A DNA stretch of 60,224 nucleotides, from positions 1 to 60,224 of the forward strand of contig JANPDE010000456.1 of NCBI GenBank assembly GCA_031431315.1, in the 5' to 3' direction. This stretch comes from Haliea sp. GTDB lineage: Bacteria > Pseudomonadota > Gammaproteobacteria > Pseudomonadales > Halieaceae. The notes below the pieces were generated by a model. It was not told the DNA's origin, did no database searches, and saw only the letters and a list, made by a program, of their open reading frames with translations. How positions within the stretch are numbered: the first letter of the stretch is position 1; each line of letters starts with the position of its first letter. The translations under genes were made by a program, and so were the position numbers. Of this stretch, positions 21,545 to 45,756 are shown one piece after another.

Positions 21545-22048
21545 CTAACCCGGCGCTGCCAGCACGTCCCGGTCCAGCGCCACGCTGGTGCTGCGGCCCA
21601 GCAGTTCTATCAGCAGCAGCGCCCGGTCTTCGCTCTGGGGCATCTGGTAGACGCCGCTCAGCCCGGCGAAGGGGCCATCCAGAATATCCAGGGTGTCGCC
21701 GGGCTGGTGCGGCCAGGTCTCTCCCTGGCGTAGCCGGCTCTCGGGGTCTTCACACTGCCGGAGATAGTCGATCACGCTGGCCGGCACCGGCCGCAGCAGC
21801 TGGCCAAAGCGCACCAGTCCCGCCACGCCCTGGGTGGAGCGTACCGGGGCGAGACTGCTCTCGCCCGGGTCGACACGCATGAACAGGTAGCGCGGGAACA
21901 GGGGCTCCACCACCTTCGTCCACTTATCTCTTCTACGTTTGCGTAGCAGGACTTTCGGCAGATAGGTTTCAAAGTGCTGCCGTTGCAGGTGCAGCTCTGC
22001 AATGGCTTCTTGCCTGGGCTTGGTATGTACTGCGTACCAGCACTTCAT
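21545..22048 (-). CDS. rfaH: RfaH/NusG-family transcription antiterminator
   Basis: WYAVHTKPRQE, EPLFPRYLF, VRSTQGV, KOW motif GDTLDILDGPFAG, LIELLGR. Confidence 0.88.
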   Translation of the reverse strand: MKCWYAVHTKPRQEAIAELHLQRQHFETYLPKVLLRKRRRDKWTKVVEPLFPRYLFMRVDPGESSLAPVRSTQGVAGLVRFGQLLRPVPASVIDYLRQCEDPESRLRQGETWPHQPGDTLDILDGPFAGLSGVYQMPQSEDRALLLIELLGRSTSVALDRDVLAAPG

Positions 22049-22152
22049 ACCGTGTAATTCATGGGGCTTCCCGCAGTGTGCAGTACGGTCTCATCCGAGA
22101 CTTCCTGGGAAATCACATCGGGCGATAAGATTACGGTCTGATTGAGGTTCAT
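22045..22152 (-). pseudogene. Truncated PqqD/RRE (lasso B1) remnant, 35 codons
   Basis: MNLNQTVILSPDVISQEVSDETVL matches 22 of the first 24 aa of the PqqD at 42665-42946, then diverges; stop overlaps the rfaH ATG. Confidence 0.85.
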
Positions 22153-22269: not shown

Positions 22270-23193
22270 TCATCTACTGCTGGTTGCTGTCCGGGTGTGA
22301 GCACAAATCGCCGTATAGGTTTCGTGCATCCGTTCCATGTTCCAGGGGCGGCTCACCCGGTACACCAGGCTTTGGTCTGCCAGCTGGGCCAGCCAGCGCA
22401 GGCGCTGCTCCTGCAGGAAGTGGAAGCTGAACAGGTAGTTGGGCAGCAACTGCTCGAATTTGCGGAAGCCGGTGACTTCGGTGATCTCGATGCCGGCATG
22501 CGGCCCGGTCTGGTCGAGTGCGTAAAAGGCGTGGATCGGCCGCGCCTGCCGGGCAAAGTGCTCTATCGGGTTGCCCAGCACTTCAAACTGGCGGAAGGGC
22601 CGGTGGTGCGGGTGCGAAGGCACTGCATAATAGCGCCCTTGCTCGAGGAAGGTGGCCACCTTGTCGTCCGACAGCATGGGGTGGCCCTGCCTGAGGAAGT
22701 AGTCCCCCAGCGTGGACTTACCCCCCATGGAAGGCGCGATGAACAAAATTGGCTGCTCGTCCACCTCCACCGCGGCTGCGTGTATGAAGTCATAGCCCCG
22801 CTCCAGAGTGAGGTGCAGGGGCAGGAAGATGTGGACAAACCAGAAGACGAGTAAGGCCCGGTTACCCTCGTCACCGAGTTGGTAATAGATGACGGAGTCG
22901 CCCCCGGTCCAGCTGAAGTTCGCCACGCCTTCCACCTGCAGACACCACGGCTGGCCTGCGGCGCTGCGGGCCGCTTCGCGGTCGGTGCGCAGGTACAGCT
23001 CGCGGCCGTGGGTTGAATAGAAGGGCATGGTCTCGGCCAAGTACTCCGGGCGCGGCGCCGTCGCATCGGTGCCCGCCCGCCTCAACTCCAGCGTGCTATG
23101 CTCGCCCGGCGCTACTGCGCTCACCGGCGTCGGGCGATCAAATAGCGCAAATTCGCAGTCAACCTTCACCCCGTAGAGGCAGTGCTCAATCAT
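22270..23193 (-). CDS. HPr-kinase-related kinase (lasso peptide kinase-like)
   Basis: IHAAAV, Walker A variant APSMGGKSTL, LSDD; ATG 23193 overlaps the B2 stop. Confidence 0.8.
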   Translation of the reverse strand: MIEHCLYGVKVDCEFALFDRPTPVSAVAPGEHSTLELRRAGTDATAPRPEYLAETMPFYSTHGRELYLRTDREAARSAAGQPWCLQVEGVANFSWTGGDSVIYYQLGDEGNRALLVFWFVHIFLPLHLTLERGYDFIHAAAVEVDEQPILFIAPSMGGKSTLGDYFLRQGHPMLSDDKVATFLEQGRYYAVPSHPHHRPFRQFEVLGNPIEHFARQARPIHAFYALDQTGPHAGIEITEVTGFRKFEQLLPNYLFSFHFLQEQRLRWLAQLADQSLVYRVSRPWNMERMHETYTAICAHTRTATSSR

Positions 23194-23699
23194 GCGCGCC
23201 GCTCCCAGCTGAAGGTCGAAACCACGGTGAACTGCTCGTGGCCCGCCCTGCCATTCACAATATCGTCGCCACATTGCAACCAGGCATGGGCGGAAAGGCC
23301 CGTGGGGTCGTCAGTACGTTCACAGCCCCGGCGCACCCCCAGGTAAAACTGGCCGGGTATGTTGCGCTTCGCCAGCAGGCGCTGCGCCACCAACACCTGT
23401 GTCAGGCATAAGCTCTGCCAGGGGGTCACTCTACTGGCGGCGGCGACCAGCCGGCCTATGGCCATCGCCTCGTCGCGCATCCGCGGCGGCAGGGCAGGCG
23501 GCGGCATGGCGAGGAGATGGTGCTGCAATTTCCTGGACAGGCGCTTGAAGGAGACCAGCAGGACAGCCGCCCGGTACCAGCCCAGCATGAACCAGGCCTG
23601 CGCCAGCAGGAGCTTGTGGCGGGTGGGCAGGGCGGTGAATTTCTGCAGCCTGTAGGGCATGGGTGGCGCAGGTGGGCCTGTGTTGTGTAGGCTGGCCAC
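23190..23699 (-). CDS. Lasso peptide B2 leader peptidase (transglutaminase-like)
   Basis: SLCLTQ, LGVR, AHAWLQCGD giving a Cys-His-Asp triad; alternative start ATG 23660. Confidence 0.9.
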   Translation of the reverse strand: MASLHNTGPPAPPMPYRLQKFTALPTRHKLLLAQAWFMLGWYRAAVLLVSFKRLSRKLQHHLLAMPPPALPPRMRDEAMAIGRLVAAASRVTPWQSLCLTQVLVAQRLLAKRNIPGQFYLGVRRGCERTDDPTGLSAHAWLQCGDDIVNGRAGHEQFTVVSTFSWERRA

Positions 23700-23787
23700 T
23701 TTAGCAAAAGCACTAGTGCAATAGAATCAGCTGGTGACGTACTGCGGGATTTTGTTTCCCGAGCATACCCCACAAGGATACACACCA

Positions 23788-25611
23788 TTGAGTGGCTTCA
23801 TTGCTATGGTCAACGCCAGTGGCGCAACAGTTGACCGCAACTTGCTGGAAACGCTGACCGCTTCATTGCAGTGCCGCGGTCCTGACCGCCAGCAGATATG
23901 GGCGGACGGCCCGGTTGGGCTTGGCCATACGCTGTTTCGCACCACCCGTGAGGCACAGTACGAAAACCAGCCGGCAAGCCTTGACGGCATGGTGTGGGTC
24001 ACTGGCTGCATACGGGTTGATGGCCGCCAGGCGCTTGTCGAGGAACTGCGCCTGAATACGCCACTTTCACTCGCAAGCACCCCCGATTCAGAACTGGTGC
24101 TGCACGCCTACCACACTTGGGGTGAGCACTGCCTGGATCACCTGCTGGGTGACTTTGCCTTTGCCTTGTGGGACGGACACAAACGGCAGTTGTTTTGCGC
24201 GAGGGACCGCTTCGGCATGCGGCAGCTTTACCACGCCCAGGTGGGCGACACCTGCATTATCAGCAACAGCATGCATTGCATGCGCCAACACCCCGCCATT
24301 TCCAGTGAGCTGAACGATCAGGCCATCGGAGATTTTCTGTTGTTCGGTGACCACATCTGGACCGATAAATCCCAGACGGCCTTCAATGACGTAAAAACCT
24401 TACCACCCGCTCATCAACTGACTTTCTGCGCCGACAGAACGACAATCGGGCGCTATTGGGATCTCCCGACGGATGTGCCCTTGCTCAAGTATCGTCGCGA
24501 AGAACAATACCTGGAGCATTTTCGATCCGTATTCACCCAGGCAGTGGACGATCGCTTGCGTTGTGATGACGTGGTGATTTCGATGAGCGGGGGGATGGAC
24601 TCCTCCGCGATAGCCGCCACCGCCACAAAAATTCGCCAGCAAGGCGGCCGGGATTTTGGCCTGCAGGCGATTACTGTCGTGTATGACAAACTGCATCACT
24701 GTCAGGAAAGACATTACTCCGGCCTGGTGGGGGAGCACCTTGGTGTTCCGATTCAATACATCGTCGCAGATCATCACCCGCTGCTGGCGCCTGCGATGCA
24801 ATGGACGCGTCCACTAGAGTACTATCAGCCCAGCATATGGATAGAGATGGCCCAACAAACCCTGCTATCCGCGCGCGTTATGCTGATCGGCGCTGCCGGC
24901 GACAATCTGCTGTGCTATTGGCCGTTCTTACCCACTATGGCGGAGGCCAACCCACTGCAGACGCTGCGCCAGATTTTCCAACTCAAAGCCCGCTACGGAA
25001 GAATGCCCGGGCTGGGAACGGGGTTGAAAGCCCGCTGGAAAAGGATGGCAGGTAAACCGGCCGGAAAAAGAAATCCCCCTTACCCCTATCCACCCTGGCT
25101 GAATCAAGACCTGGCAGACAGGTTTGCAATGCAGGATCGATGGGATGCTCTATGGGCAACCTTGTTTACTGGCGCAACCAGGCATGGGCTGCATCGTGAC
25201 GCGCTGATGTCACCCAACTGGAACACGGACGATTTGGCTATGACCGGGTCTTTAATAGCGCCTGAACAGCGCGACCCTTATCTGGATCTCAGGCTGGTAA
25301 ATTTCGTGCTGTCCCTTCCGCCCATGCCATGGCTGTATCAAAAACATATCCTGCGACAAGGCGTCAAAAACTTATTACCAACAGCTGTTATAGAAAGACC
25401 GAAGCAGGCTTTGGGTGATTTGGCGAGTTCACTTATCGGACAAGCGGCATTCGATACGCAGCCTCCGAGTGGTGACCTGGATAAAGTTGACCTGGATAAA
25501 TATGTTAACGCAGCTGCTTTCAGAAAAGCCATTGCTGGGATTGGTGATGGAGGCCTGAATTATGTAAACCTGCGGCCCCCGATATTAAGACAGTGGCTCC
25601 AAATGCTATGA
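23788..25611 (+). CDS. Lasso cyclase (asparagine-synthetase-like) C1
   Basis: TTG start after AAGGA gives MSGF, with Ser in place of the catalytic Cys; RGPD, GDFAFALWD, SMSGGMDSS, RDPYLD; adjacent to B2 and a precursor. Confidence 0.85.
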   Translation: MSGFIAMVNASGATVDRNLLETLTASLQCRGPDRQQIWADGPVGLGHTLFRTTREAQYENQPASLDGMVWVTGCIRVDGRQALVEELRLNTPLSLASTPDSELVLHAYHTWGEHCLDHLLGDFAFALWDGHKRQLFCARDRFGMRQLYHAQVGDTCIISNSMHCMRQHPAISSELNDQAIGDFLLFGDHIWTDKSQTAFNDVKTLPPAHQLTFCADRTTIGRYWDLPTDVPLLKYRREEQYLEHFRSVFTQAVDDRLRCDDVVISMSGGMDSSAIAATATKIRQQGGRDFGLQAITVVYDKLHHCQERHYSGLVGEHLGVPIQYIVADHHPLLAPAMQWTRPLEYYQPSIWIEMAQQTLLSARVMLIGAAGDNLLCYWPFLPTMAEANPLQTLRQIFQLKARYGRMPGLGTGLKARWKRMAGKPAGKRNPPYPYPPWLNQDLADRFAMQDRWDALWATLFTGATRHGLHRDALMSPNWNTDDLAMTGSLIAPEQRDPYLDLRLVNFVLSLPPMPWLYQKHILRQGVKNLLPTAVIERPKQALGDLASSLIGQAAFDTQPPSGDLDKVDLDKYVNAAAFRKAIAGIGDGGLNYVNLRPPILRQWLQML

Positions 25612-25624
25612 AGCAAAGCGGCTT

Positions 25625-25795
25625 CTATGATCCCTGGCCGGGGGGAATCATAGTTCCCATGCTGTTGCCGGGGGTGTCATTTATGGTGTCAGGGCCGTTA
25701 TTCTGCGTAGTACGCGTTATGGACCCGAATGAGGTCAATGTAGGGGTGTCGTATGATTTTTTACAGGGTTTGCGAGTATCTGTTTCAGGTGTCAT
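25625..25795 (-). CDS. Lasso precursor A1 (56 aa); predicted core NNGPDTINDTPGNSMGTMIPPGQGS
   Basis: Leader YDTPTLTSFGSITRTTQ fits YxxPxLxxxGxxxxxT with Thr at -2; Asp9 acceptor; AAGGGA upstream. Confidence 0.85.
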   Translation of the reverse strand: MTPETDTRKPCKKSYDTPTLTSFGSITRTTQNNGPDTINDTPGNSMGTMIPPGQGS

Positions 25796-25931
25796 CGTTG
25801 CGGTCCCTTGCAGATTTTGCACGGTGTCTGACTGATGGTCCCAGCAAAGCCGGTCGTTTGCAAGGAAAGCCCTGCACAGGACCCCACCAAATTTCCAGTA
25901 TACGATTTTGAAAGCCGGGTTGGGTTGTGCA

Positions 25932-27074
25932 CTAACTAAATCGCTCAACCAGATCCTGCACAAACCGCAATGCTTCCGTATGTTCCTTGAAAAGCGCTCT
26001 ACGCTGCTCCTGTAATTCAGACGCAAGGTGCTCCACAGTCGATTCACCGTTCATCCGGCCGAGCAGCCAGAGCGCAGCCTCGCCTTTTGTACCGAGCGCC
26101 GGATGGTAATGCAGTGTTTTCTTTTGCATGTCTTCGAGCCTGACTGGTTGCGATAAAAACGAACTCTGGCGTTGGTGCTGGTCGCCCAGACGCGTGCTCC
26201 AGGACCATTCCCCCCGCTCAGGCCGCTTCAGGCTGAATCCGAGGCGATCTCCCTTTACCACCGGCAGCGGTTGGGCCAGGGGCATGAAGACCTGGTTCCA
26301 GTGGGTTTTGCAGCTTTCCCCGTCGGTCGACAGCCACTCGTCCACCAGCCGCATCTGGAACCAGCCCATCCAGCCGTGGCAAACTCCATTGCGCTGAACA
26401 GTGACTTCCACCTGGCTGTCGCATGCGGCTTTTGTCGCCGTGTTGAAATCCAGCTCCAACACCGCGACGGGCTCGGCCAGCCGCTGGGCCTGCATATGCT
26501 TCGCGCTGTCATGCCGCATGTAGTTTGCCGCGTAGGCCCGCAGCGCGCTGTAATCCAGCTCCGGCAAACCCTGCTCGTTACACACCCGGGGGAAGTCACC
26601 CCAGGACGCGACATGCTTGTCGTAGTAGGCGGGCGCAGTAACGGGAACGACTTCCATTCTCCCGCGGTCGGGAATCAGCCGGCCGCCGGGTGCCAGATAA
26701 TGGTCGCGGGCGTAAAAGAGCGATGGCAGCAGGTCTTCGCTGAGCAGGAAATTGCCGGTGAACACCGACACGATGACATCGACCCTGGTATCAAGCTGCA
26801 GTTCCTCCGCCCGGGCACGGATACATTCCACCGCGTCGAGCTGATTGTCGGCTGCGACGGTGCGGGCCACTTCAACGGCGACCGTGGGTTCAACCAGGTA
26901 CACCTTCGCTGCCCCCAGCCGCGCGGCAATAAGCCCGAGAACTCCAAGTCCCGCCCCCAGGTCCATGACCGTCGTGTCCGGGGTAATTACCTTTTTCAGG
27001 GCGCTGGTGTAGGCGGCATTGCGGGTGCCGTCAAACACCATGCCGCGGTGCCCCACTACATCTTTATAACTCAT
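25932..27074 (-). CDS. PRMT-fold (protein arginine methyltransferase-like) SAM methyltransferase
   Basis: HRGMVFDGTRNAAY, VMDLGAGLG, VYLVE, VDVIVS, ARDHYLAPGGRLIP and THWNQ align with PRMT1 motifs. Confidence 0.85.
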   Translation of the reverse strand: MSYKDVVGHRGMVFDGTRNAAYTSALKKVITPDTTVMDLGAGLGVLGLIAARLGAAKVYLVEPTVAVEVARTVAADNQLDAVECIRARAEELQLDTRVDVIVSVFTGNFLLSEDLLPSLFYARDHYLAPGGRLIPDRGRMEVVPVTAPAYYDKHVASWGDFPRVCNEQGLPELDYSALRAYAANYMRHDSAKHMQAQRLAEPVAVLELDFNTATKAACDSQVEVTVQRNGVCHGWMGWFQMRLVDEWLSTDGESCKTHWNQVFMPLAQPLPVVKGDRLGFSLKRPERGEWSWSTRLGDQHQRQSSFLSQPVRLEDMQKKTLHYHPALGTKGEAALWLLGRMNGESTVEHLASELQEQRRALFKEHTEALRFVQDLVERFS

Positions 27075-27207
27075 GATTTTCCGGCGCTTCCTTCAACTAT
27101 CATGGCGGGTAGCTTTCGTACTGCCCTTTTGTGTACGCTGGCCACTCTACCAAGCGCCTCCTGCAAAGACAAAAAGAGTCACTCTGGCGGCGCAGCTCGG
27201 GACCACC

Positions 27208-28833
27208 ATGAATTTCTCGGTACTGCTGACCTACATCACCCCGCATCGCCGCGTGCTTATGGCGGTGCTGGGCCTGTTGCTGGCGGGCAGCCTGGTGTCG
27301 CTGGCCAACCCCTGGATGGCGGGGCTGCTGACCGCCAGTGTGTTGGGCCAGGGTGAGCATGAGCCGAAGCTGATCCTGGCCCTGTGGCTTGGCCTGATGG
27401 CCACAACCAGTCTGATCGGCTTTTTTACCAGCTACCGCATTGGCACCACGGGGGAGCAACTGACAGCGGGGCTGCGCGAGCGGCTTCACCAGCACCTGCA
27501 GGCACTGCCCCTGGCTTACTACCAGCGGCGTCGGCCGGGCGAAACGCTGACCCTGCTCAGTGCCGACGCCGCCATTATCAGCAGTTTTGTGACCGCCACC
27601 CTGGTGCAGCTGCTGCCTGCCCTGCTCACCTTTATCGGGGCCTTTATCCTGATGGCATGGCTGGCCCCTGTCATCGCCCTGCTGGTCGTGCTGTTCCTGC
27701 CGGCCTACGTGCTTGCAATGAAGATCATGGGGCGGCAGCTGCGGCCACTGTCACGCGCATGGGTCGATGCTAACAGCCGCGTGGTGTCGGTGGTACAGGA
27801 AAACCTCGACATGCTGCCCGCCATCAAGGCCTTTACCCGCGAACAACACGAGCAGGGGCGATTTGAAGCGGTCAACCGGCAATTGCTGGCGCTATCGCAA
27901 CGGCAGCTGCGCTTACAGTCCCTGCTCTCACCCGCGATCGGCCTGCTGGGCGGGATCGGGCTTGTCGCCCTGCTGTGGATGGGCACCGCGCAGATAGAAA
28001 GCGGCCAGTTGGCGCCGTCACAGATGGTCAGCCTGCTGCTCTATGCCATGCTCCTGATGAGCCCGCTGAGCACCCTGGCCGACATTTACGGGCAGGTGCA
28101 GCGCACCCGCGGCAGCGCCGAGCGGATCATCGAATTCCTGGGGGAGCAACCTGAACCGGCGGATGAGGGCAACCGGGTGCTCGACCATGTAAAGGGCCGC
28201 ATAGAGTTCCGCGATGTCAGCTTCGGCTACCCGGGGCGCCCGCCCGTGCTCAGCCACTTCAACCTGGAGATATCCGCCGGTGAAACACTGGCGCTCACCG
28301 GCCCCAATGGCGCGGGCAAATCCACGCTCGCCCACCTGCTGATGCGCTTCGCCGACCCGGACGAAGGCGCCGTGATGATCGATGGCGTGGACACCCGCGC
28401 GGCCACCATCACCAGTGTGCGTGCCCAGATCGGCCTGGTGGCGCAGAATGTACTGCTGCTCAACGGCAGCGTGGCCGAGAATATCGCCTATGGGGAACCG
28501 ACAGTGAGCCGGGAAAAAATCGAGGCCGCCGCCAAAGCCGCCCATGCCCATGCCTTTATCACGCAACTGCCCGATGGTTACGATACGGTGATCGGCGACC
28601 AAGGCGTAAGGCTCTCTGGCGGCCAGCGCCAGCGCATATCACTGGCCCGCACCCTGCTGAAGGACCCGCCCATCCTCATCCTGGATGAGGCCACAGCCAT
28701 GTTCGACCCTGAGGGGGAGAAGGCGTTTATTGAAGAGTGTCGGGAGATGTTGGGGCGCAAGACGGTGATTTTAATTACTCATCGGCCAGCCAGTTTGGCG
28801 TTGGCGGACAGGACGATTAGAATTGAAACATGA
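27208..28833 (+). CDS. ABC exporter, fused TMD-NBD (lasso D-like)
   Basis: Hydrophobic N-terminal domain; GPNGAGKST, LSGGQRQR, LILDEAT. Confidence 0.9.
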   Translation: MNFSVLLTYITPHRRVLMAVLGLLLAGSLVSLANPWMAGLLTASVLGQGEHEPKLILALWLGLMATTSLIGFFTSYRIGTTGEQLTAGLRERLHQHLQALPLAYYQRRRPGETLTLLSADAAIISSFVTATLVQLLPALLTFIGAFILMAWLAPVIALLVVLFLPAYVLAMKIMGRQLRPLSRAWVDANSRVVSVVQENLDMLPAIKAFTREQHEQGRFEAVNRQLLALSQRQLRLQSLLSPAIGLLGGIGLVALLWMGTAQIESGQLAPSQMVSLLLYAMLLMSPLSTLADIYGQVQRTRGSAERIIEFLGEQPEPADEGNRVLDHVKGRIEFRDVSFGYPGRPPVLSHFNLEISAGETLALTGPNGAGKSTLAHLLMRFADPDEGAVMIDGVDTRAATITSVRAQIGLVAQNVLLLNGSVAENIAYGEPTVSREKIEAAAKAAHAHAFITQLPDGYDTVIGDQGVRLSGGQRQRISLARTLLKDPPILILDEATAMFDPEGEKAFIEECREMLGRKTVILITHRPASLALADRTIRIET

Positions 28834-28843
28834 TACCGAGTGA

Positions 28844-30580
28844 TTAGTTTAAATCCATCGACATGTTCAAAACCAGAATGGACCTTATCGCGGTAGTTAT
28901 ATCCACTATCAGTTCCTCCGGCGTTCCTGATTCTCTACGCGCTATTTTGTCCAGCAAAATATTTAGTTTAGCCCAGTCAATAAACGGGTTGTCCCTCGCG
29001 CCGGCCGGATGATCCGCATGCCACCGGGACAGGGCATCAACGCATATCTGAATGGCTTTCGCTATACGAACGGGTTCATTTTTGTGGATTGAAGCCCAGA
29101 CCTCCTGTGGTAAAAGGTCTCGTACTACATAGCGAAAAAGATATCGGGGATGGCCCTTGCGACGAAACATTTGTGCAGGTAGTCCCAACGCAAATTCCAC
29201 AATTCGCTTATCTAACAGCGGATAACGATACTCCACGCCAGCCCGCCGACCAGAGGCAGCCCAGGACTCCAGTCGACATAACACATGTCCCGCTTCCCAA
29301 TAGGCCAGCTGACTCTTTCGAACGGAATACCTGGGGTGCTGATCTACCGCGAAGGGCAGTGCACGAGCGCATTCAGCCAGGGCAGCAGACGCGGCACCCA
29401 GATAATCGGGTACGACCTGCCTTGAGATTAATCTCCGGGGCAGAAATGGCATCAATAGTTCGCGGCAAGCCAACGAAAAAAAGCTGCGAAAATGGTGATC
29501 ATTTTCGGCAGTCGCATGCCAAAGGTCGCGCAGGGTCGACAGCAGATTTCCCGCTAAAAGAGTTTCCGCATAGCGTTGATTTCCGTAATGTGTAATCAAC
29601 TCATCGCCGCCCCAGCCGGACAGAATTATTGAGCCTCCACTCGCGACTACTTCTTCCCTGACTGCGAACTCATACCAGCAATCCGCGGTATCACCGCCTG
29701 CTATGTTCAAATTCCGGAGCAACGACAGCATGCTGTCACTGTTGAATTCACAATAGTGCAAGTCAATATCGTACCGATTGGCTACGGATATCCCGGTGGC
29801 CCATTCCGGGTCGAGTGCCTCGGATGCGTTTTGCGGGGGAGCCAACCAACTGTATCCGGTGACAGAGGGTCCAGCTTTAGTCGCCTGCATTGCTGCCAGT
29901 GCTGCGATTGCAGAGGAATCGAGCCCGCCACTGAGGTGGACAGCCAGAGCGCCATGCCTGGGGATCCGGCAAGCAACCGCCTCCAGTAGTAGCTGGTGCA
30001 GCCTATCGGCGTAATCCTTCAGGGTAGGCAACATTACTCCAGGGCTATCCTCGGGGCGCCAGTAGATCCATTCCCTGATTTGACTGTCCTCGACGGTCAT
30101 GGCGCTGGCCCGGGGGAGCTTTCTTACTTTGTCGAAAAATGTCAGTCTGGAATCACGCAACTCACCATCGCGTAGATATAACGCCACCGCTTCGCGACAA
30201 ACACGCTTGGGTACAGGGCCACAATTTGTAATCGCAGATATGTCATCGGAGACAATCGCTGTAGCGTCATCTGCAAAGAAGTAGAAAGGCACTACGCCAA
30301 TATGGTCTCGGGCACAGAACACCCAATCATTAACCGGATCATCAATTGCGAACGCAAAATCACCCAGCAGGAATTCAGGGGTTTTTACTCCCCATTTCTG
30401 GTATGCAAGGAGGATAAGGGCATCATCAGAAAGGGCGTTAAGCGCCAGTGAAGGTATGCACAGCAGCTGGGCTAACTCGGCTCGATTGTCCAGCCGCGCT
30501 TTCGCGTCTATCGTTAGGGTTCTGGTAGCGGGAAGTGCAATTGAACGATGGGATCGTTGCCTCGCGAAACGGCCGAACAT
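28844..30580 (-). CDS. Lasso cyclase (asparagine-synthetase-like) C2
   Basis: No N-terminal Cys and shortened Ntn domain; ARLDNR, GDFAF, HLSGGLDSS, SGWGGDE, RYPLLDKR; 36 bp downstream of precursor A2. Confidence 0.85.
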   Translation of the reverse strand: MFGRFARQRSHRSIALPATRTLTIDAKARLDNRAELAQLLCIPSLALNALSDDALILLAYQKWGVKTPEFLLGDFAFAIDDPVNDWVFCARDHIGVVPFYFFADDATAIVSDDISAITNCGPVPKRVCREAVALYLRDGELRDSRLTFFDKVRKLPRASAMTVEDSQIREWIYWRPEDSPGVMLPTLKDYADRLHQLLLEAVACRIPRHGALAVHLSGGLDSSAIAALAAMQATKAGPSVTGYSWLAPPQNASEALDPEWATGISVANRYDIDLHYCEFNSDSMLSLLRNLNIAGGDTADCWYEFAVREEVVASGGSIILSGWGGDELITHYGNQRYAETLLAGNLLSTLRDLWHATAENDHHFRSFFSLACRELLMPFLPRRLISRQVVPDYLGAASAALAECARALPFAVDQHPRYSVRKSQLAYWEAGHVLCRLESWAASGRRAGVEYRYPLLDKRIVEFALGLPAQMFRRKGHPRYLFRYVVRDLLPQEVWASIHKNEPVRIAKAIQICVDALSRWHADHPAGARDNPFIDWAKLNILLDKIARRESGTPEELIVDITTAIRSILVLNMSMDLN

Positions 30581-30616
30581 CTAGCAGCTATCTTTTTACC
30601 ACCTCGAAAATCGTTA

Positions 30617-30805
30617 TCAGGAACAGCCGAGGGTCATCTGACCAGGAGCGCACGGTGCCAAAAAATTGAAGAAGTTTTCGCCACCCGGAATAAAGGTACC
30701 ATTTGCAGTTTCACTCAAGCCTAAAGTGCTTACAACGGGCGTAGTCCACACTTTTTTGGTCACGGGTCCCGAGTCGCGGCGCTCAATGTTTACTTGATTA
30801 CTCAT
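30617..30805 (-). CDS. Lasso precursor A2 (62 aa); predicted core NGTFIPGGENFFNFLAPCAPGQMTLGCS
   Basis: Leader KKVWTTPVVSTLGLSETA is paeninodin-like (KKxWxxPxxxxLxxxxT) with Thr at -2; Glu9 acceptor; GAGGTGA RBS. Confidence 0.82.
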   Translation of the reverse strand: MSNQVNIERRDSGPVTKKVWTTPVVSTLGLSETANGTFIPGGENFFNFLAPCAPGQMTLGCS

Positions 30806-31049: not shown

Positions 31050-32156
31050 TCAGTAACAGTGCTCAAGCGCGCTGTGCATTGCAGCGGCAACGTTATCTAC
31101 CTCTGACATCGACAGGTGCGGCCCAATGGGCAGACTTAATACTTCGCGCGCCAGGCGATCGGCGACCGGCCACTTGCCGGCACTGCCATGTATTTCGACA
31201 TAAGCTTTTTGCCTGAAGGGTGGAATCGGATAGTGAATCAGTGTCGCGATGCCTGCGTCGCTGAGTCGCGCTTGCAATTCATCCCTGTGTGTCGAGGAAA
31301 TGACATAGAGGTGCCATGCGTGTACTGACTCGGGACTCGCCTCCGGCAATGTCAGTGGCAGGCCCGCCAGCTTTGCTGCATAGCGTTGCGCAATTAGCGC
31401 TCGCCTGTCGTTCCATGACCGAAGATGGCGCAGCTTCACCGAGAGAATGGCGGCCTGTATCGGATCGAGACGGCTGTTTACCCCTTTTTCGTCATTCACA
31501 TACTTTCTTGATGACCCGTAGTTGCGCAGTTCACTAATACGCCGGGCAAGGCCTTCATCATCCGTGGTAATTGCCCCGGCATCGCCAAACGCGCCCAGGT
31601 TCTTGCCGGGGTAAAAGCTCCAGGCCACGATATCGGCTGACTTGCCGATCATGGTTCCGCCAGTGGCAGCGCCGTGCGCCTGCGCTGCGTCTTCTACCAT
31701 GCGCAGCCTATGCTTGAGACATATTTTTCGCAGCGCCGGGATATCCGCTGGATGGCCGTAAAGGTGCACCGGCAGTAACACCTTGGTGCGGGTTGTGATG
31801 GCGGCTTCCACCAAAATCGGGTCAATACAGTGTGTGACCGGGTTTGCCTCGACAGGCACAATCGTTGCGCCAACCGCGCTCACCGCGAGCCAGGTCGCGA
31901 TATACGTATTGGCGGGGACGATGACTTCATCACCGGGACCTATGTCCAGCGCGCGCAGGGAGAGAACCAGGGCGTCGAGACCGTTGCCAACGCCAACGCA
32001 GTATCTGGAGGTCACAAACTCGGCAAATTCGCGTTCAAATGCCGTAACCTCATCTCCCAAGATATACCACCCCGAGTCCAGAACGCGTGCGACGGCCTCA
32101 TCAATCTCGGCTTTCAATTCAGTGTAGGTGCTTCTTAACTCGAGAAAGGGTATCAA
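31050..32156 (-). CDS. DegT/DnrJ/EryC1/StrS sugar aminotransferase (FdtB/QdtB-like)
   Basis: [36 protein letters not shown] (PLP Lys). Confidence 0.92.
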
Positions 32157-33046
32157 TGTCCTACACCTTTCTCACGCAGGTAATCGCCGTAATTCCGTAT
32201 GTAATCCTTGGGGTCATAGTAATTCGATGCAAATACCAGCAGCACGCCATCTGCCGAGTACTTGTACTGATTCGCCCATACGCCGGGAGGAATGTAGAGT
32301 CCCAGCGTTGGCGAATCGAGTAATATCTCTTCGCGATTAACACCATCATCAACAACGACACTGACAGACCCTGTCACGCAGGTCAAAAATTGCTGGCACT
32401 CGCGGTGCGCATGCTCACCTCTGGTTTCCGCGCTGGGCACATCGTAGACAAGGAAATAGCGCTTTGGCCTGAATGGGACGTTCCGGGAAAATTCACCGAC
32501 GGAAAGATCACCGCGTAAATCACGTATCCGCTTGAACCGGTGGATAGTCACACCGGCAACTGAACAGGTGTTGACTCCAGGCTCTTCCGAAGCTTGAACG
32601 GGCGCATTGGCAAGATCGCTGCTGCCGCCACTTGAATAGCCGATGATGACGCCCGGGTTGCCGTGCACAATGGCATAAGGCGGAATGCACCTGGAAACAA
32701 TTGTGCCTGGCGCTATTCTTGCGTTCATGCCAATGGTAATACCGCAGATCAGTACACTGCCGGCTCCTACATGGACATTGGGCTCGATGGTTATCGCTGC
32801 AGGAGTGGCTGCGGCGCCAGTGTCGTGAAAGTCATTGGCGATGCAGACTCCAGGCTCCAAGGTGCAGTTTTCGCCAATCTCCAACGTGCCAATCAACGTA
32901 ATACCGCCCAGCAAAACAGCTCCCTTGGCAATAGAGATGTCACCATCGATATAACAATTCGGGCCTACGTTTGCATCAGCATCGATATGTACTCTGGGTG
33001 AGATATAAGACGATGGATGATGGCCGACGGGTGACTGCTCTTTCAT
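32153..33046 (-). CDS. WxcM-like bifunctional LbH acetyltransferase / cupin 3,4-ketoisomerase
   Basis: N-terminal hexapeptide repeats; C-terminal DLRGDL, RGEHAH, YIRNY of the FdtA cupin. Confidence 0.85.
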
Positions 33047-33085
33047 GTTAAAGTCCAGCGCTTCTCTATGGCGATTTTCTGCAGC

Positions 33086-34390
33086 CTACCGGCCGACGCA
33101 ACTGTAGTGGAATCCGTGCGCCTGCATCGTGCTCCGTTCGTAAACATTGCGCAGATCCACGAACACATTGCCTCGCATCAACGATTTCAATCGGGCCAGA
33201 TCGAGCCCGCGGTACTGATTCCACTCCGTCATCAGGACGATGGCATCGGCATCACGGACAGTATCGTCGATGCTGTTCGCGTACTCAATGGTATCCCGTA
33301 ATTCCTTGCGGGCTTCATCCATGCCATGCGGATCGTGGGCCTTTATGCTTGCCCCCTGTGTGACCAGGGCGGGCAGAATTGTCAGGGAGGGTGCATCTCG
33401 CATGTCGTCAGTCTCGGGTTTAAACGTCAGCCCCAGTACTGCGATTGTCTTATGCGCCACACTGCCACCCAGCGCGTCTTGTATTTTCACCACCATGCGG
33501 GATTTCTGTGCGGTATTCACTGCGACAACCGCCTCCACGATTCGAGTGGGGGTGCCGGCCTCCTGGGCCATACGGATCATCGCCTGGGTGTCCTTGGGAA
33601 AGCAGGAGCCGCCATAGCCTGGCCCCGGATGCAGAAATTTCTTGCCAATGCGTGCGTCCAGCCCCATGCCTCTTGCCACCGCGTGGACATCGGCGCCAGT
33701 TTTTTCGCACAATTGCGCCACTTCATTAATGAAGCTGATTTTTGTCGCCAGGAAGGCGTTGGCTGCGTATTTGGTGATCTCAGCGCTTTCCAGGTCAGTC
33801 ACCAGGATGGGAGCCTCGATCAGGTACAGCGGCCGGTACAGTTCACGCAGCAGGGTTTCGGCCCGTTTATTCTCCACACCCAGCACGACGCGATCCGGGC
33901 GCATGAAATCGTTGATCGCCGAGCCCTCGCGCAAAAATTCGGGGTTGGAAGCGACATCGAAGTCGGCTGTCGGGTTGGCCTGTTGTATGACGCGCTTTAC
34001 CTCCCGGGCGGTTCCCACCGGCACAGTGGATTTATCCACAATAATGGTGTAACCCTGCAGGTGCTCGGCAATTTGACAAGCAGCGGCATACACATATTTA
34101 AGATCGGCGTGGCCATCGCCACGGCGGGTCGGTGTACCAACGGCAATGAAAATAAGATCTGCGTCGCCAATCCAGTCCTGGAATTTTGTAGAGAACTGCA
34201 GGCGTCCGGCCTGCATATTGCTGTGCACCAGATCTTCGAGGCCGGGTTCGTAGATCGGTATCTTGCCATGTTGCAGGGCAGCAATCTTTTCGGCATCCAC
34301 ATCCAGGCAGGTGACATTGGCGCCAAACTCGGCAAAGCAGGCCCCGGACACCAGTCCCACATAGCCCGCACCGATCATCACAACATTCAT
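33086..34390 (-). CDS. ugd: UDP-glucose 6-dehydrogenase
   Basis: [36 protein letters not shown]. Confidence 0.95.
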
Positions 34391-35403
34391 GGTTGTTCCT
34401 TGTGCATGTATTGCAGATACCAGGCGATAAAATTGTTGATGCCATCCTGCACCGGCGTTTGCGGCCGGTAGTCGACAGCCTCGATCAGGTCCTCAATATC
34501 CGCATAGGTGGCTGCCACATCGCCTGGCTGCATCGGCAGCAAATCCTGCTGCGCGGTTCTTCCCAGCGCCTTTTCTATTGCCGCGATAAAATCGGTCAAT
34601 AACACCGGTTTACTATTGCCAATGTTGTACAAACGGTAGGGAGCGCTGCTGGTACCGGGGTCTGGGAAGTTGGCATCCCAGGCGCGATTGGCAGTGGCAG
34701 GCGCATCGGTGACGCGGATTATGCCCTCGACGATATCGTCCACGTACGTGAAATCACGCTGCATCGCGCCGTTGTTGAATACCTTGATGGGTTCTCCTGC
34801 CAGAATGGCTTTGGTGAACAGGAAGAGCGCCATATCGGGTCGTCCCCAAGGGCCGTACACCGTGAAAAAGCGCAGGCCCGTCGTGGGAATGCCGTATAGG
34901 TGTGAATAGGTGTGAGCCATCAGTTCATTGGCCTTCTTGCTCGCGGCGTACAGCGAGATCGGATGGTCCACGTTGTCGTGCACGGAAAAAGGCATCGCAC
35001 CGTTCATGCCGTAGACGGAACTGCTGCTGGCGTACACCAGGTGACCGATGTGGTGGTGTCGACAGCATTCCAGCACATTCATGAACCCCACAATATTGCT
35101 GTCGATATAAGCGTGGGGGTTTTCCAGCGAATAACGCACACCGGCCTGGGCGGCGAGATTGATCACGGCGTCAAAGCGGTTGTGGGCAAATAATTCCACC
35201 ATGGCAGCTCGGTCCTGCAGGTCGGCGCGAATGAAACGAAAGCCACCCTGCTTTTGTAGCCTTGCCAGGCGTGCTTCCTTCAGGCTGACAGCGTAATAGT
35301 CGTTGAGGTTGTCCAGGCCAGTGACGGTGTCGCCGCGCGCCAGTAACTTGTCGCTGAGGTGATAGCCAATAAAGCCGGCAGCGCCGGTGACCAGAATATG
35401 CAT
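34387..35403 (-). CDS. UDP-glucuronate 4-epimerase (CapI/Uge-like)
   Basis: [36 protein letters not shown]. Confidence 0.92.
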
Positions 35404-35574
35404 TGGGGTGACTCTATTACGCGAGCTTGGTGCTGCATGATAAATTGTTTTGTCTGCTTTTGCATTGCATCAGAGTGTGCGCTGCCGCCCGAAATGGTGC
35501 ACCAGGGCTTCCCACATGGTGCAAACGGATATACTCTCAGTCGCTTGGTGCAATGACAATCCGGGACGAATGGA

Positions 35575-36591
35575 ATGGCCGGAACCGTATTGGTGACAGG
35601 TGGCGCAGGGTACATTGGTAGTCACGCATGTGTGGCGCTAATGGAAGCCGGTTATAAGGTGGTGATACTCGACAACCTTTGCAATAGCAGCGTGGTTGTC
35701 CTGCAGCGCCTGCAGGAAATCTGTGGTACGGCACCCATCTTCATTCGGGGAGATGTTCGCGATCAGGCTTGCCTGGAGCAGATTTTTCGCACCCATACCA
35801 TAGTTGCGGTGTTGCACTTTGCCGGCCTGAAGGCGGTCGGCGAGTCAGTGTCCATGCCACTGGAGTACTATGACAACAATGTCGCGGGCTCGCTTGCACT
35901 ACTGGCTGCCATGCGCCATGCCGGGGTTACGAACCTGGTGTTCTCCTCTTCCGCCACGGTGTATGGGGACCCGGCTACGGTTCCTATCCGCGAAGATTTT
36001 GCCCTCGCCCCAACCAGCCCGTACGGCCGCACCAAACACATGGTGGAAGTCATATTGGCGGACTGGCACCATGCGAATCCCGACTGGAGCATAGGCCGCT
36101 TACGTTATTTCAACCCGGTCGGAGCGCACCCCAGCGGACGTATTGGCGAGGATCCCCGGGGTTTCCCCAACAACCTGATGCCGTTTGTGGCGCAGGTGGC
36201 CGTGGGCCAGCGCGATAAGTTGTATGTCTTCGGCAATGACTATGCGACCCCGGATGGCACCGGTGTGCGCGACTATATCCACGTGATGGATCTGGTGGAT
36301 GGGCATGTCGTTGCATTGGATCACGTCTGCCAGCAAGGTGGATTGCATACCATTAATCTGGGTACCGGCAACGGCGTATCGGTGCTGGAAATGGTGGGTG
36401 CCTTCGAGCGCGCAAGTGGGAAATCAGTTCCCTACGAGATTGTCGCGCGTCGCCCCGGCGATATCGCTGCCTGCTGGGCTGACCCCGGCCTGGCGCTGCA
36501 ACTATTGCGGTGGAAGGCTACCCGCACACTGCAACAAATGTGTGAAGACGCCTGGCGTTGGCAAGCGGGCAATCCCACGGGCTACGCATGA
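35575..36591 (+). CDS. galE: UDP-glucose 4-epimerase
   Basis: GGAGYIGSH, HFAGLKAVGES, FSSSATVYG, YGRTK, LRYFNPVGAH. Confidence 0.95.
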   Translation: MAGTVLVTGGAGYIGSHACVALMEAGYKVVILDNLCNSSVVVLQRLQEICGTAPIFIRGDVRDQACLEQIFRTHTIVAVLHFAGLKAVGESVSMPLEYYDNNVAGSLALLAAMRHAGVTNLVFSSSATVYGDPATVPIREDFALAPTSPYGRTKHMVEVILADWHHANPDWSIGRLRYFNPVGAHPSGRIGEDPRGFPNNLMPFVAQVAVGQRDKLYVFGNDYATPDGTGVRDYIHVMDLVDGHVVALDHVCQQGGLHTINLGTGNGVSVLEMVGAFERASGKSVPYEIVARRPGDIAACWADPGLALQLLRWKATRTLQQMCEDAWRWQAGNPTGYA

Positions 36592-40520: not shown

Positions 40521-42668
40521 CTAAGCCGATGAGACCTCGACCGATACCCCGTTCACCGCGGCGTTCCCCGACAGTGCGTCCAGCACCAGATCATCGGTGA
40601 TGTCGTTGCAGCTTACGCCTGCATGGCGCGCCGCGACAGACAGTCGTATCCCTGCGCGGTCATGTCCGAAGCCGTGCGGCAGGCTGACCACGCCGGGCAT
40701 GATTTCCTCAGTGGCTTCCACGACAACCTGCAGTGTCCCCACACGCGAACGCACGCTGACTTCACTGCCTTGGGCAATGCCCCGCTGCTGCAGGTCATCA
40801 GGGTGCATCAACAGCGTACAGCGATTCTTGCCCTTCACGAGTCGCCGGTAGTTGTGCATCCAGGAGTTATTGGAACGCACATGACGGCGGCCAATCAATT
40901 GCAGCGGTCGCAGTTGCGGTTGATTGGATAATGCTGCTGCGGTGATGGGAAACTCACGGCGCACGCGGGCGAGGTCTGCCAGGGGTTCCGGCGTGTCACA
41001 ACGGATAGTCTTATCTTTGGTTTGCAGGCGAGCGGGCAATTGTGGTTGTAGCGCACCGAGGTCGATCCCGGAAGGATGCTCGCGTAATTTTGCCAGCGAC
41101 ATACCCTGCGTCGCATAGGGGCCGAATTGCAGTCCCAGATCGATGATCTGCGCCGGTGCCACGCTTGGCTGTGGTTCATTGCCCAACAACTGCGCCACGC
41201 GATTGCCCAACTCCGTGAAGATTTCCCAGTCGTGCAGGGCGCCGGCGGGCTTGTCGAAAACAGCTTCATTGAACCGCGCGGTATTGCGCACAGCATTGGC
41301 ATGAAAGGCAAGGTCGTAGTGATCGTGCTCCAGCGGCGATGTGGGCGGCAGAATAATGTCCGCGTGGCGCGTGGTTTCATTGAGATACGGGTCCAGCGAC
41401 ACCATGAATTCAAGCTGCGCCAGGGCTTCATCCAGTTGCCGTCCGTTGGGCGTGGACATGACCGGGTTGCCGGCGCCCGTGAATAGCGCGCGAATCTGGT
41501 GCTCTCCCGGCGTGGTGATCTCTTCGGCGAGTGTGGAAGCGGGAAACTCGCGATCGAATTCCGGCAGGCCGCGCACGCGACTGTGGTGGCGGGCAAAACC
41601 GCCGGGACTGCTGGTGCTCACCTGGTCTATCGCGGGCAGGGTGAAAAGCGAGCCGCCCGGAAGATCCAGATTGCCGGTGGCTATATTGATCAACTGAATC
41701 AGCCACTGGTTAAGGGCGCCATAGGCCTGGGTGGAAACGCCCATGCGGCCGTAGCAGATGGCCGCCCCGGCAGCGGCAAACTCCCGAGCCAGCCGGCGGA
41801 TGGTGTCGGCATCGATCTGCGTGTGCTGCGCGGCGTACTCCGCAGTGAAATCGTCAATGGCGTGACGCACCACGTCCAGCCCGCTGGTGAAATCGCGCAG
41901 GTGTGCGGTATCGTCCAGACCTTCACTCAGGATGGTGTGCAACACTGCCAGCAGGAACAGCGCGTCAGTGCCGGGCTTGATAAAATGGTGTTCACTGGCG
42001 ATTTGCGCGGTTTCCGTATGGCGTGGATCTAGCACGACCAACTTGCCGCCGCGCGCCTGCAGCGCCTTGATACGCTTTTTCACGTCCGGCACTGTCCAGA
42101 TACTGCCATTGGAAGCAATGGGATTGGCACCCAGCATCAGGAGGTAGTCGCTGCGGTCAATATCGGGTATGGGAAACAGGAACTTGTGGCCGAACAACCA
42201 CAGGGCTGCCAGATGGTGGGGCAGTTGATCCACCGAGGTGGCGGAGAAGCGGTTATTGGTGCGCAAGTGCCTGAACAGGTTGCCCTGGTGGGTCAGCATG
42301 CCGTGGTTGTGCACGGAGGGATTGCCCATATAGACGCCGATGGCGTGCACGCCGTTTTTTTCGTGCACAGCAACCAGTCCCTGTGCCGCGCTGTCCAGTG
42401 CCTCGTCCCAGCTGATCTCCTGCCATTGCATTTCCCCAGCAGCATTGGTAGTGCGCCGCAGCGGTTGCCGCAGGCGGTCCGGGTCCTCGTGGAAATCCTG
42501 CAAGGCCATCGCCTTGGGACAGACGTGGCCACGGCTCAGTGGGTCATTTTTGTCGCCCTTGATTGAGAGGATTTGATCGCCCTCGGTTTCTATCACCAAT
42601 CCGCAGATCGCCTCGCACAGGTGGCAGGCCCGAAAATGTGTTTTTCGTTCTGCGGACGCCTGACTCAT
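40521..42668 (-). CDS. Molybdopterin (bis-MGD) oxidoreductase with N-terminal 4Fe-4S motif, substrate unknown
   Basis: CHLCEAICG...GHVCPK, GANP, ETTRHADIILP, C-terminal molydopterin-binding domain (VSLPHGFG). Confidence 0.88.
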   Translation of the reverse strand: MSQASAERKTHFRACHLCEAICGLVIETEGDQILSIKGDKNDPLSRGHVCPKAMALQDFHEDPDRLRQPLRRTTNAAGEMQWQEISWDEALDSAAQGLVAVHEKNGVHAIGVYMGNPSVHNHGMLTHQGNLFRHLRTNNRFSATSVDQLPHHLAALWLFGHKFLFPIPDIDRSDYLLMLGANPIASNGSIWTVPDVKKRIKALQARGGKLVVLDPRHTETAQIASEHHFIKPGTDALFLLAVLHTILSEGLDDTAHLRDFTSGLDVVRHAIDDFTAEYAAQHTQIDADTIRRLAREFAAAGAAICYGRMGVSTQAYGALNQWLIQLINIATGNLDLPGGSLFTLPAIDQVSTSSPGGFARHHSRVRGLPEFDREFPASTLAEEITTPGEHQIRALFTGAGNPVMSTPNGRQLDEALAQLEFMVSLDPYLNETTRHADIILPPTSPLEHDHYDLAFHANAVRNTARFNEAVFDKPAGALHDWEIFTELGNRVAQLLGNEPQPSVAPAQIIDLGLQFGPYATQGMSLAKLREHPSGIDLGALQPQLPARLQTKDKTIRCDTPEPLADLARVRREFPITAAALSNQPQLRPLQLIGRRHVRSNNSWMHNYRRLVKGKNRCTLLMHPDDLQQRGIAQGSEVSVRSRVGTLQVVVEATEEIMPGVVSLPHGFGHDRAGIRLSVAARHAGVSCNDITDDLVLDALSGNAAVNGVSVEVSSA

Positions 42669-42946
42669 GGGGCAATCTGCAGTCGAATAAGGCCGCGCTG
42701 GCAGGCATCCGTGAGAAAGGCTTCAAGATCGGCGCCCAGTTGCGGTCCCTCAACCTCGTATTCTTCCAGCAGGGTGTTGTAGATGATGCGCAACTCACCG
42801 CTTTCCCGGATCAACTGCCAGATGCGCGTGCTCACCGCGTCCAGGCCGAAGTAGCACTCGCTTTCCAGGTCGAGTAGTACGGTTTCGCCGGAAACTTCCT
42901 GGTAGATCACGTCTGGTGAAAGGATTACGGTTTGATTCAGGTTCAT
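42665..42946 (-). CDS. PqqD-family RiPP recognition element (lasso B1), 93 aa
   Basis: QEVSGETVLLDLESECYFGLDAVSTRIWQLI...EEYEV...DLEAFL; GGAGGAG upstream; stop overlaps the oxidoreductase ATG. Confidence 0.9.
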   Translation of the reverse strand: MNLNQTVILSPDVIYQEVSGETVLLDLESECYFGLDAVSTRIWQLIRESGELRIIYNTLLEEYEVEGPQLGADLEAFLTDACQRGLIRLQIAP

Positions 42947-43984: not shown

Positions 43985-44244
43985 AGGCTCCTACGCAACA
44001 CTGCCAGGCCAAGCCGAATAGCATGGTTGTTAAGGAGGGCCGGACTATGTCACTATCGGAAAGAGTTATGAATATTGATGTGAGTCTCTACCAAATGCTA
44101 CAGACTTTAATTTTAGCGATTTTCGAAAAAATCCCACTAAATCAAGAATTGGATAATAGGGCATTGATTGAAATCGGGAACGATTTTGTAATCAACAGTT
44201 TTTACTCGAATAAACGTTGGGGGCTCTACTGAAATATCCATTCC

Positions 44245-45669: not shown

Positions 45670-45756
45670 TGGTGCCCAGAAGAGGACTTGAACCTCCACG
45701 CCCTTGCGAGCACCAGCACCTGAAGCTGGCGTGTCTACCAATTTCACCATCTGGGC
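45670..45756 (-). tRNA. tRNA-Leu(CAG)
   Basis: GCCCAGA...TGGTAGAC...CCAGC-TTCAGGT-GCTGG, long variable arm, GTTCAAGTC, TCTGGGC-A-CCA; 87 nt. Confidence 0.97.

Follow-up and report, generated by a model that had tools for sequence, protein, structure and literature searches.

The window, by which we mean the whole stretch of 60,224 nucleotides analysed here (Haliea sp., contig JANPDE010000456.1), contains a set of genes predicted to make lasso peptides. At one end lies A2, a small precursor gene for which a preliminary description had proposed an Asn1-Glu9 lasso with two cysteines in its tail. The features to which we refer are the following.

22045..22152, minus strand: truncated PqqD/RRE (B1) stub, homologous over its first 24 codons and then running into rfaH
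22270..23274, minus strand: HPr-kinase-like peptide kinase K (weak TIGR04352/TIGR04355 matches; His165, Lys186 in GKST, Asp202-Asp203 region)
23190..23699, minus strand: leader protease B2 (NF033537, 88 bits, above the cut-off of 33; PF13471; Cys98 and His138 motifs)
23734..25611, plus strand: cyclase C2, paired with A1-type precursors (NF033535, 314 bits; in a clade separate from C1)
25625..25795, minus strand: second precursor A1 (NF033528, 30 bits, cut-off 33)
25932..27074, minus strand: SAM methyltransferase (MT) with a PRMT-like C-terminal domain (PF06325, PF22528)
27073..28833, plus strand: ABC exporter, a fused permease/ATPase (PF00664 and PF00005)
28844..30580, minus strand: cyclase C1, asparagine-synthetase-like, 578 aa (NF033535; SGGLDS motif)
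30805-30617, minus strand: precursor A2, 62 aa, with leader at 30805-30704 and core at 30703-30620 (assigned from homologs, selection and the family alignment)
30707..30709, minus strand: Thr(-2) codon of the A2 leader, invariant in 26/26 precursors, with a synonymous change in three further contigs
30677..30703, minus strand: predicted macrolactam ring Asn1-Glu9 (Glu9 in 26/26)
30620..30652, minus strand: Cys18...Cys27-Ser28, a predicted disulfide loop and terminal Ser, the latter a putative phosphate site
42665..42946, minus strand: intact PqqD/RRE, the likely B1, 12 kb from A2 (PF05402, above cut-off; putative role)
45670..45756, minus strand: tRNA-Leu(CAG), here 15 kb from A2

The genes of the module (23734-30805) alternate in orientation (C1 -, ABC +, MT -, A1 -, C2 +, B2 -), and their order differs among relatives, which suggests frequent shuffling. 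All module genes except B1 have open frames and keep their catalytic motifs. The module interrupts a large polysaccharide locus (402-21540 and 31050-36591) that includes glycosyltransferase-like genes, FkbM methyltransferases, a NodU-like carbamoyltransferase, DegT, WxcM, a UDP-glucose dehydrogenase and a true AsnB-type amidotransferase (7327-9117). RfaH passes the TIGR01955 cut-off, which fits a gammaproteobacterial host.

A2 is a 62-aa open reading frame on the minus strand (30617-30805) with an ATG and a stop codon, a GAGG element just 5' of the ATG, and the C1 gene beginning 37 nt past its stop. By motif reading, the C-terminal 28 aa form a core in which Glu9 is the sole acidic residue, cysteines occupy positions 18 and 27, and Ser28 is last; the minus-strand translation bears out the earlier account of a 28-aa core with both cysteines outside the predicted ring. 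Of the Phe-rich loop described with it, the residues themselves (Phe11, Phe12 and Phe14) are present, and their placement in the loop or the tail is putative.

Seven homologs of A2 have 68-77% identity. The gene is under purifying selection: across five DNA copies dN/dS is 0.24 in the core, compared with 0.20-0.21 for the neighbouring cyclase C1, and 0.20 in the leader motif, against 0.91 in the first 16 codons. Both Cys codons show synonymous variation only in these copies. Thr(-2), Asn1 and Cys18 are likewise retained, amid synonymous changes, in three additional contigs, which come from three further studies. At metagenome loci A2 is followed by C1 in four of four cases (87-93% identity), and the metagenomes in which this DNA is best represented are from freshwater sediment, two of them being its possible source. 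Because 16 of the 28 core positions are invariant among the eight closest homologs, invariance of the cysteines at this distance is weak evidence alone and the case rests on more distant members. Of the 56,505 stop-to-stop segments of 40-130 aa that the genome contains, two matched the family pattern, and the A2 frame is one of the two; the figure is to be read as a background estimate only, the pattern having been derived from the family itself. Against the paeninodin-family leader model NF033524, A2 gave a weak match (13.8 bits, under the cut-off of 27), and 11 of 25 family members matched at E<=0.1, the best at 2.7e-05. The ESM Atlas gave unnamed clusters at 0.90, to be taken as no more than a lead. 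Alignment of A2 to the genus found it in 0 of 47 other genomes, and solved structures gave no match for its core and only ribosomal-protein noise for the family profile; an 11-residue match among genome contigs (L027) was judged spurious. No promoter-like site rose above chance, and a single RNA run, uninformative because its contigs derive from a relative, gave no cover over A2.

Distant members were added through a profile search of protein representatives. A C1-clade profile detected 21 of 306 family genomes at E<=1e-60, and the loci around these matches held 11 intact A2-type precursors and one that is frameshifted. A precursor profile, with 20 candidates scored per genome, recovered exactly those 12 genomes and one other (G000), having been built from the very genomes that it recovered. 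We dropped from the counts the L026 precursor (a duplicate of P0009), the frameshifted G189 precursor, the tandem P0015, and the long repeat proteins P0012-14 and P0016; P0017 was retained and is possibly an artefact. The 26 distinct sequences, in which the register was fixed by the leader motif alone, fall into 12 core lineages, with 12 of the sequences belonging to the A2 lineage. Only P23, L28, T33 and E43 are invariant in a MAFFT alignment of 25 precursors. An A2-type precursor occurs in 13 of the 306 family genomes and adjoins a C1-type cyclase in all 13; decayed copies are also seen in relatives, the G189 precursor being frameshifted and G210 having a short cyclase frame. Comparative sequence evidence confirms A2 as a real, conserved gene; it has a cyclase of its own and encodes a putative lasso-peptide precursor whose family is uncharacterised. 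Its lasso identity, as originally proposed, is supported by Thr(-2), Glu9, the adjacent cyclase and B2.

P0015 (92 aa) consists of two tandem leader-plus-core units, each with Thr(-2) and Glu9; it ends in Ser and is possibly a multi-core lasso precursor. A distant A2 homolog (P0011) and a 53% C1 homolog (P0026) are each recorded with a longest contig of 44,563 bases, which suggests that they are neighbours. On a 1.9-kb contig (G000:C2:1190-1615, L002), a PqqD domain is fused to a C-terminal leader-like segment, possibly a self-docking precursor.

The best NCBIfam match of C1 is to the lasso cyclase model NF033535 (260 bits, below the cut-off of 525), versus 156 bits for AsnB. C1 is without the N-terminal Cys; since the short N-terminus is common to its close homologs and the AlphaFold model is confident throughout (pLDDT 89.7), it is not a recent truncation. 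Its closest organism-named homologs are from Halioglobus sp. (Halieaceae). In a quick tree the cyclases beside A2-type precursors form one clade (9 of 9 intact ones tested, SH-aLRT 100), apart from 16 cyclases beside Cys-free Y-x-x-P precursors, a grouping that is partly a product of how the cyclases were found. Members of this C1 clade occur chiefly in the bacterial family searched, with three weak matches among 399 other genomes of the class, and the class-wide search of these 399 found no clear precursor at the three loci. As a single query against 60 relatives, C1 returned only generic asparagine-synthetase matches (<=35% identity over long stretches); a search of genome contigs gave no confirmed relative, and among solved structures its sequence matched asparagine and beta-lactam synthetases, an amidotransferase and nothing else.

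The second precursor, A1, is of the Y-x-x-P leader type, with a predicted Asn1-Asp9 ring, a core without Cys, and a Ser end. Elsewhere (L071, L073, L080 and L109), Y-type precursors with long Gly/Met repeat tails lie beside C2-like cyclases, and one genome, G146 (L088), has at least three cyclase genes. Neither the A2 nor the A1 core contains Arg. The PRMT-like methyltransferase (PF22528) recurs in many such lasso modules; two genus relatives with a shorter methyltransferase have no precursor or cyclase nearby. A literature search gave no link between arginine methyltransferases and lasso peptides, and a trial of the methyltransferase C-terminus as an RRE was rejected (BLAST E 0.24, hhalign probability 0.3%).

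The B1/RRE gene beside the kinase is a 24-codon stub, with the intact copy 12 kb from A2. The stub is 96% identical in nucleotide sequence to the PqqD gene of G020, a genome of the genus, and 79% identical to the intact copy, a mismatch that marks a transfer breakpoint inside the B1 gene. In G020, rnr, the tRNA, ABC, MT, B2, K and PqqD form an uninterrupted run and the locus lacks any precursor or cyclase; the B2/K/MT/ABC genes of G020 are 90% identical to those here, versus 83-86% for the flanks. GC3 is 0.51-0.53 for A2 and C1 versus 0.72-0.82 for B2, ABC and MT. In three close relatives A2 lies 275-385 nt behind tRNA-Leu; in the window, the corresponding slot (43076-45471) holds a PhyH-like dioxygenase and a low-GC AlgX/SGNH-like gene. 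We infer that a G020-like lineage was the source of this copy of the module, which now relies on its host's PqqD, and that precursor-cyclase cassettes plug into a shared B2-K-MT-ABC chassis. Five of the seven other B2-bearing genus genomes (G020 apart) were without cyclase or precursor in the region examined, and one other has a cyclase-like fragment; loss of the cluster by decay, or use of its chassis for something else, is thus common. At L036 (G020:C27) and L037-L041, B2 and ABC, with or without MT, K and PqqD, stand in regions read to contain no precursor or cyclase, and these loci are either relic clusters or a chassis with another substrate.

Thr(-2), corresponding to T33, and Glu9 are each present in 26 of 26 family precursors, so that a ring from residue 1 to Glu9 is well supported and the proposed cleavage register, checked across the family, holds. 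Residue 1 itself varies (S 14, T 6, G 2, N 2, D 1 and V 1). Thus, of the Asn1-Glu9 ring originally proposed, the Glu9 acceptor stands as a family trait and Asn1 does not: it is incidental to the family, which usually has Ser or Thr here, and is a residue of the A2 sub-lineage only (2/26). Nor is Asn1 without published precedent, since metanodin, from a gammaproteobacterial metagenome cluster, has experimentally supported Asn1 with Thr(-2) (PMC12670498), the latter described as a conserved recognition residue (PMC10368454).

The cysteines are conserved as a pair. Two are present in 21 of 26 precursors, none in five, and a single one in none; by lineage, seven have two and five have none. All lie outside the ring, the ring Cys that is a feature of class I and class III being absent in 26/26, so the pair described earlier is borne out in homologs. 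Across the 12 lineages the Poisson chance of finding no odd Cys count is 0.0007, a value calculated for kin that are not independent. Where a pair is present, the first Cys falls at 18-21, after two to four aromatic residues, and the second follows with 4 to 8 residues between. This two-or-none distribution with variable spacing reads as a disulfide signature. We consider a tail-tail Cys18-Cys27 disulfide, the hallmark of class IV (PMC13352647, PMC9266682), to be likely. The position of the first Cys, together with spacings of only 4 residues (3/21) and the three Cys-free members that are complete at 16-18 residues, suggests that threading is probably finished before the first Cys, with the disulfide ring as an add-on below.

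The catalytic His, Lys and Asp-Asp residues of PadeK and ThcoK (PMC9266682) are present in kinase K, and the motif is kept in relatives, though the kinase also accompanies precursors without a terminal Ser. The Ser at the end of the A2 core is conserved: 22 of 26 A2-type precursors, from 8 of the 12 lineages, end in Ser, and 4 of 26 end otherwise. A kinase of at least 51% identity is found in 11 of the 13 precursor-bearing genomes versus 7 of the 293 others, genomes that as kin are not independent. At L069, L076 and L080 there is a second, more distant kinase gene (27-38% identity).

We considered how else the ring and the cysteines might be arranged. Thr1, Val1 and Asp1 are unusual nucleophiles, and with Gly at residue 2 in 23 of 26 members (S 2, R 1) they speak for cleavage one residue later. 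The product would then have a Gly1-Glu8 ring like that of the felipeptins (PMC7689547). This register, however, would move the invariant Thr to -3, leave a variable residue at -2 (Thr in 1/26) and require three members to start with Ser or Arg; given also the metanodin precedent, we regard it as very improbable, and Asn1-Glu9 as the best reading of the predicted A2 ring. A different concern is that the cysteines stay free, bind metal or are modified, e.g. by methylation, leaving a class II peptide. Family scans of the module genes found no oxidoreductase, and the module methyltransferase has no evident substrate. On the other hand, the strict two-or-none distribution at variable spacing speaks against it, and the LP2006 and pandonodin clusters are likewise without an oxidoreductase in the accessible text of PMC9266682. 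A DsbB gene is present in the genome. Nor is there a thioether-forming lyase among the annotated module genes, for which reason thioether or lanthipeptide-like chemistry was also rejected. Free or modified cysteines are, in our estimation, improbable. Finally, lasso loops of up to 20 aa exist (PMC13352647), so that threading after Cys18 is conceivable in A2, where the Cys spacing (8) is the widest of any lineage. The tail would then thread between the two cysteines, leaving Cys18 on the loop side and Cys27 on the tail side; a disulfide between them would lock the lasso covalently, outside the four classes. Between the cysteines, however, there is no aromatic residue in A2 or in 11 of the 21 pairs, a spacing of 4 as in some relatives would be too small to encircle the ring, and the Cys-free relatives stop at 16-18 residues. 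We give this lock hardly any credence, nor more to its elaboration into a phosphoserine beside the locking Cys in a two-cyclase line that uses one RRE and protease for two leader types. The Asn1-Glu9 ring and the tail-tail Cys18-Cys27 disulfide, taken jointly, are the probable structure of the product. Calculated monoisotopic masses are 2889.29 Da for the linear core, 2871.28 Da once the ring is closed, 2869.27 Da with the disulfide in addition and 2949.23 Da with a phosphate as well, whereas a disulfide-bearing Gly1-Glu8 product would have 2755.22 Da.

The phosphate is less secure. That Ser28 is phosphorylated by K has, on the motifs and their distribution, slightly better than an even chance. 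The same lasso and disulfide could instead carry an unmodified Ser28, K acting on precursors of the second type or on a Ser/Thr at an internal position; BsfK, for instance, phosphorylates core Ser3 of its substrate (PMC10368454). Three of the seven kinase genomes without an A2-type precursor have Y-type precursors only, ending in Ile, Met or Phe (L108, L109 and L110), and the remaining four comprise one Ser-ending precursor, two short contigs, and G020, which has the kinase and no precursor at the locus. Against this reading, the terminal Ser common to most of the family is retained even after Pro-Pro insertions, and the one intact member that ends in Pro (L077) has a kinase of only 29-30% identity. 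An unphosphorylated Ser28 is thus a possible but rather unlikely outcome, and the combination of ring, tail-tail disulfide and Ser28 phosphate is put forward tentatively, at somewhat less than an even chance. It could also be that A2 is intact and its product not made in this strain, because the module moved in with B1 cut off. The stub, the 79% DNA identity of the intact PqqD to it, and the decayed copies in G189 and G210 fit such a history, as do two positions at which the intact PqqD differs from four of four close family homologs that otherwise share them (Tyr for Ser at 15, Ser for Gly at 39). Yet the other module genes are open with their catalytic motifs present, PqqD lies away from the cluster in all four family cases found, and B1 acts in trans as a separate protein (PMC5067487). 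A silent A2 is accordingly a decidedly unlikely state of affairs.

On the preferred reading, in which A2 would work as a predicted class IV lasso whose leader and kinase are of the paeninodin type, we can propose a biosynthetic route. The stand-alone PqqD/RRE would bind the W-x-x-P-x4-L leader, and K may, at little better than even chance, phosphorylate the C-terminal Ser of the linear precursor in the manner of PadeK, ThcoK and SyanK. B2 would cut two residues after the invariant Thr, a register taken from conservation, whereupon C1 would adenylate Glu9 and close the ring about the tail, the likely plugs being Phe11/Phe12 and Phe14/Leu15. The disulfide could form spontaneously or through housekeeping Dsb proteins and would provide a second lock below the ring. 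Export would fall to the ABC transporter, and the A2 product is most likely a secreted or envelope-associated peptide.

How does this peptide compare with known lasso peptides? Class IV members include LP2006, pandonodin from the proteobacterium Pandoraea, and felipeptins A1/A2 (PMC7689547, PMC9266682). In its accessible text a 2020 review states that classes I, III and IV come only from Actinobacteria, yet lists pandonodin (PMC7549694), and this statement explains why the preliminary description saw class IV as mainly actinomycete. With pandonodin already proteobacterial (PMC7689547, PMC13352647), a class IV peptide from a gammaproteobacterium loses the surprise first attached to it, and the host range of A2 is not unexpected. 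Pandonodin (Pandoraea norimbergensis; PDB 6Q1X) is like A2 in having a long C-terminal part and one tail-tail disulfide (predicted for A2), and its cluster, as described, is also without a dedicated oxidoreductase. It has 33 aa and a panABCD cluster for which the available accounts give no tailoring genes (PMC13352647, PMC7689547, PMC7549694). A2, in contrast, is 28 aa long and has a predicted Asn1-Glu9 ring of 9 residues, split B1/B2, a kinase, a methyltransferase and a second precursor/cyclase pair; the A2 core and profile had no sequence match to pandonodin among solved structures. The actinomycete felipeptins and LP2006 share with A2 the two Cys outside the ring, and the felipeptins also a two-precursor cluster (PMC7689547). 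Felipeptins are, however, 17-18 aa long, with Gly1-Glu8, Cys13-Cys17, one cyclase and a flavin oxidoreductase (PMC7689547), whereas in A2 the predicted disulfide spans 10 residues, the cyclase belongs to a clade of its own and the chain ends in Ser.

The phosphorylated peptides of the paeninodin group (paeninodin, ThcoA, SyanA and pseudomycoidin) resemble A2 in their NF033524-type leader, split B, His-Lys-Asp-Asp kinase and C-terminal Ser (PMC9266682). Paeninodin itself is described as class II without a disulfide (PMC9266682), A2 scores under the NF033524 cut-off and, unlike this group, there is no nucleotidyltransferase among the annotated module genes. Metanodin (metagenomic, Steroidobacterales) has, like A2, Asn as first ring residue, Thr(-2) and an uncultured gammaproteobacterial host, but its ring closes on Asp and its cluster is a classical ABC one, with neither disulfide nor kinase mentioned in the available text (PMC12670498). 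The bsf cluster of Bradymonas sediminis likewise combines a Gram-negative host with split B1/B2, a kinase and an ABC transporter, and differs in Ile(-2), Ser3 phosphorylation and the presence of a nucleotidyltransferase (PMC10368454). The tail-disulfide lasso design is itself rare but known. In literature drawn mostly from outside subscription journals, we found neither a lasso with both disulfide and phosphate nor a paper on the A2 family. The novelty of A2 lies in its family, which is uncharacterised and occurs in aquatic bacteria, and for which a disulfide combined with a phosphate is predicted.

Since nothing points to an activity or a target of A2, its interest is chemical and biosynthetic. 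Only four class IV peptides appear as characterised in the available text of reviews (LP2006, pandonodin, and felipeptins A1 and A2), and a 2026 review describes the contribution of the tail disulfide and its formation as still unexplained. The A2 family offers at least seven Cys-pair core lineages, a natural series of disulfide spans with 4 to 8 residues between the cysteines, and the Cys-free short relatives on the same cyclase clade provide a natural test of what the tail disulfide contributes and how it forms. If Ser28 is phosphorylated, A2 would join two decorations that have so far been reported separately. The C1 clade also seems to tolerate any of Ser, Thr, Asn, Gly, Val or Asp as the first core residue, a breadth that would help engineering.
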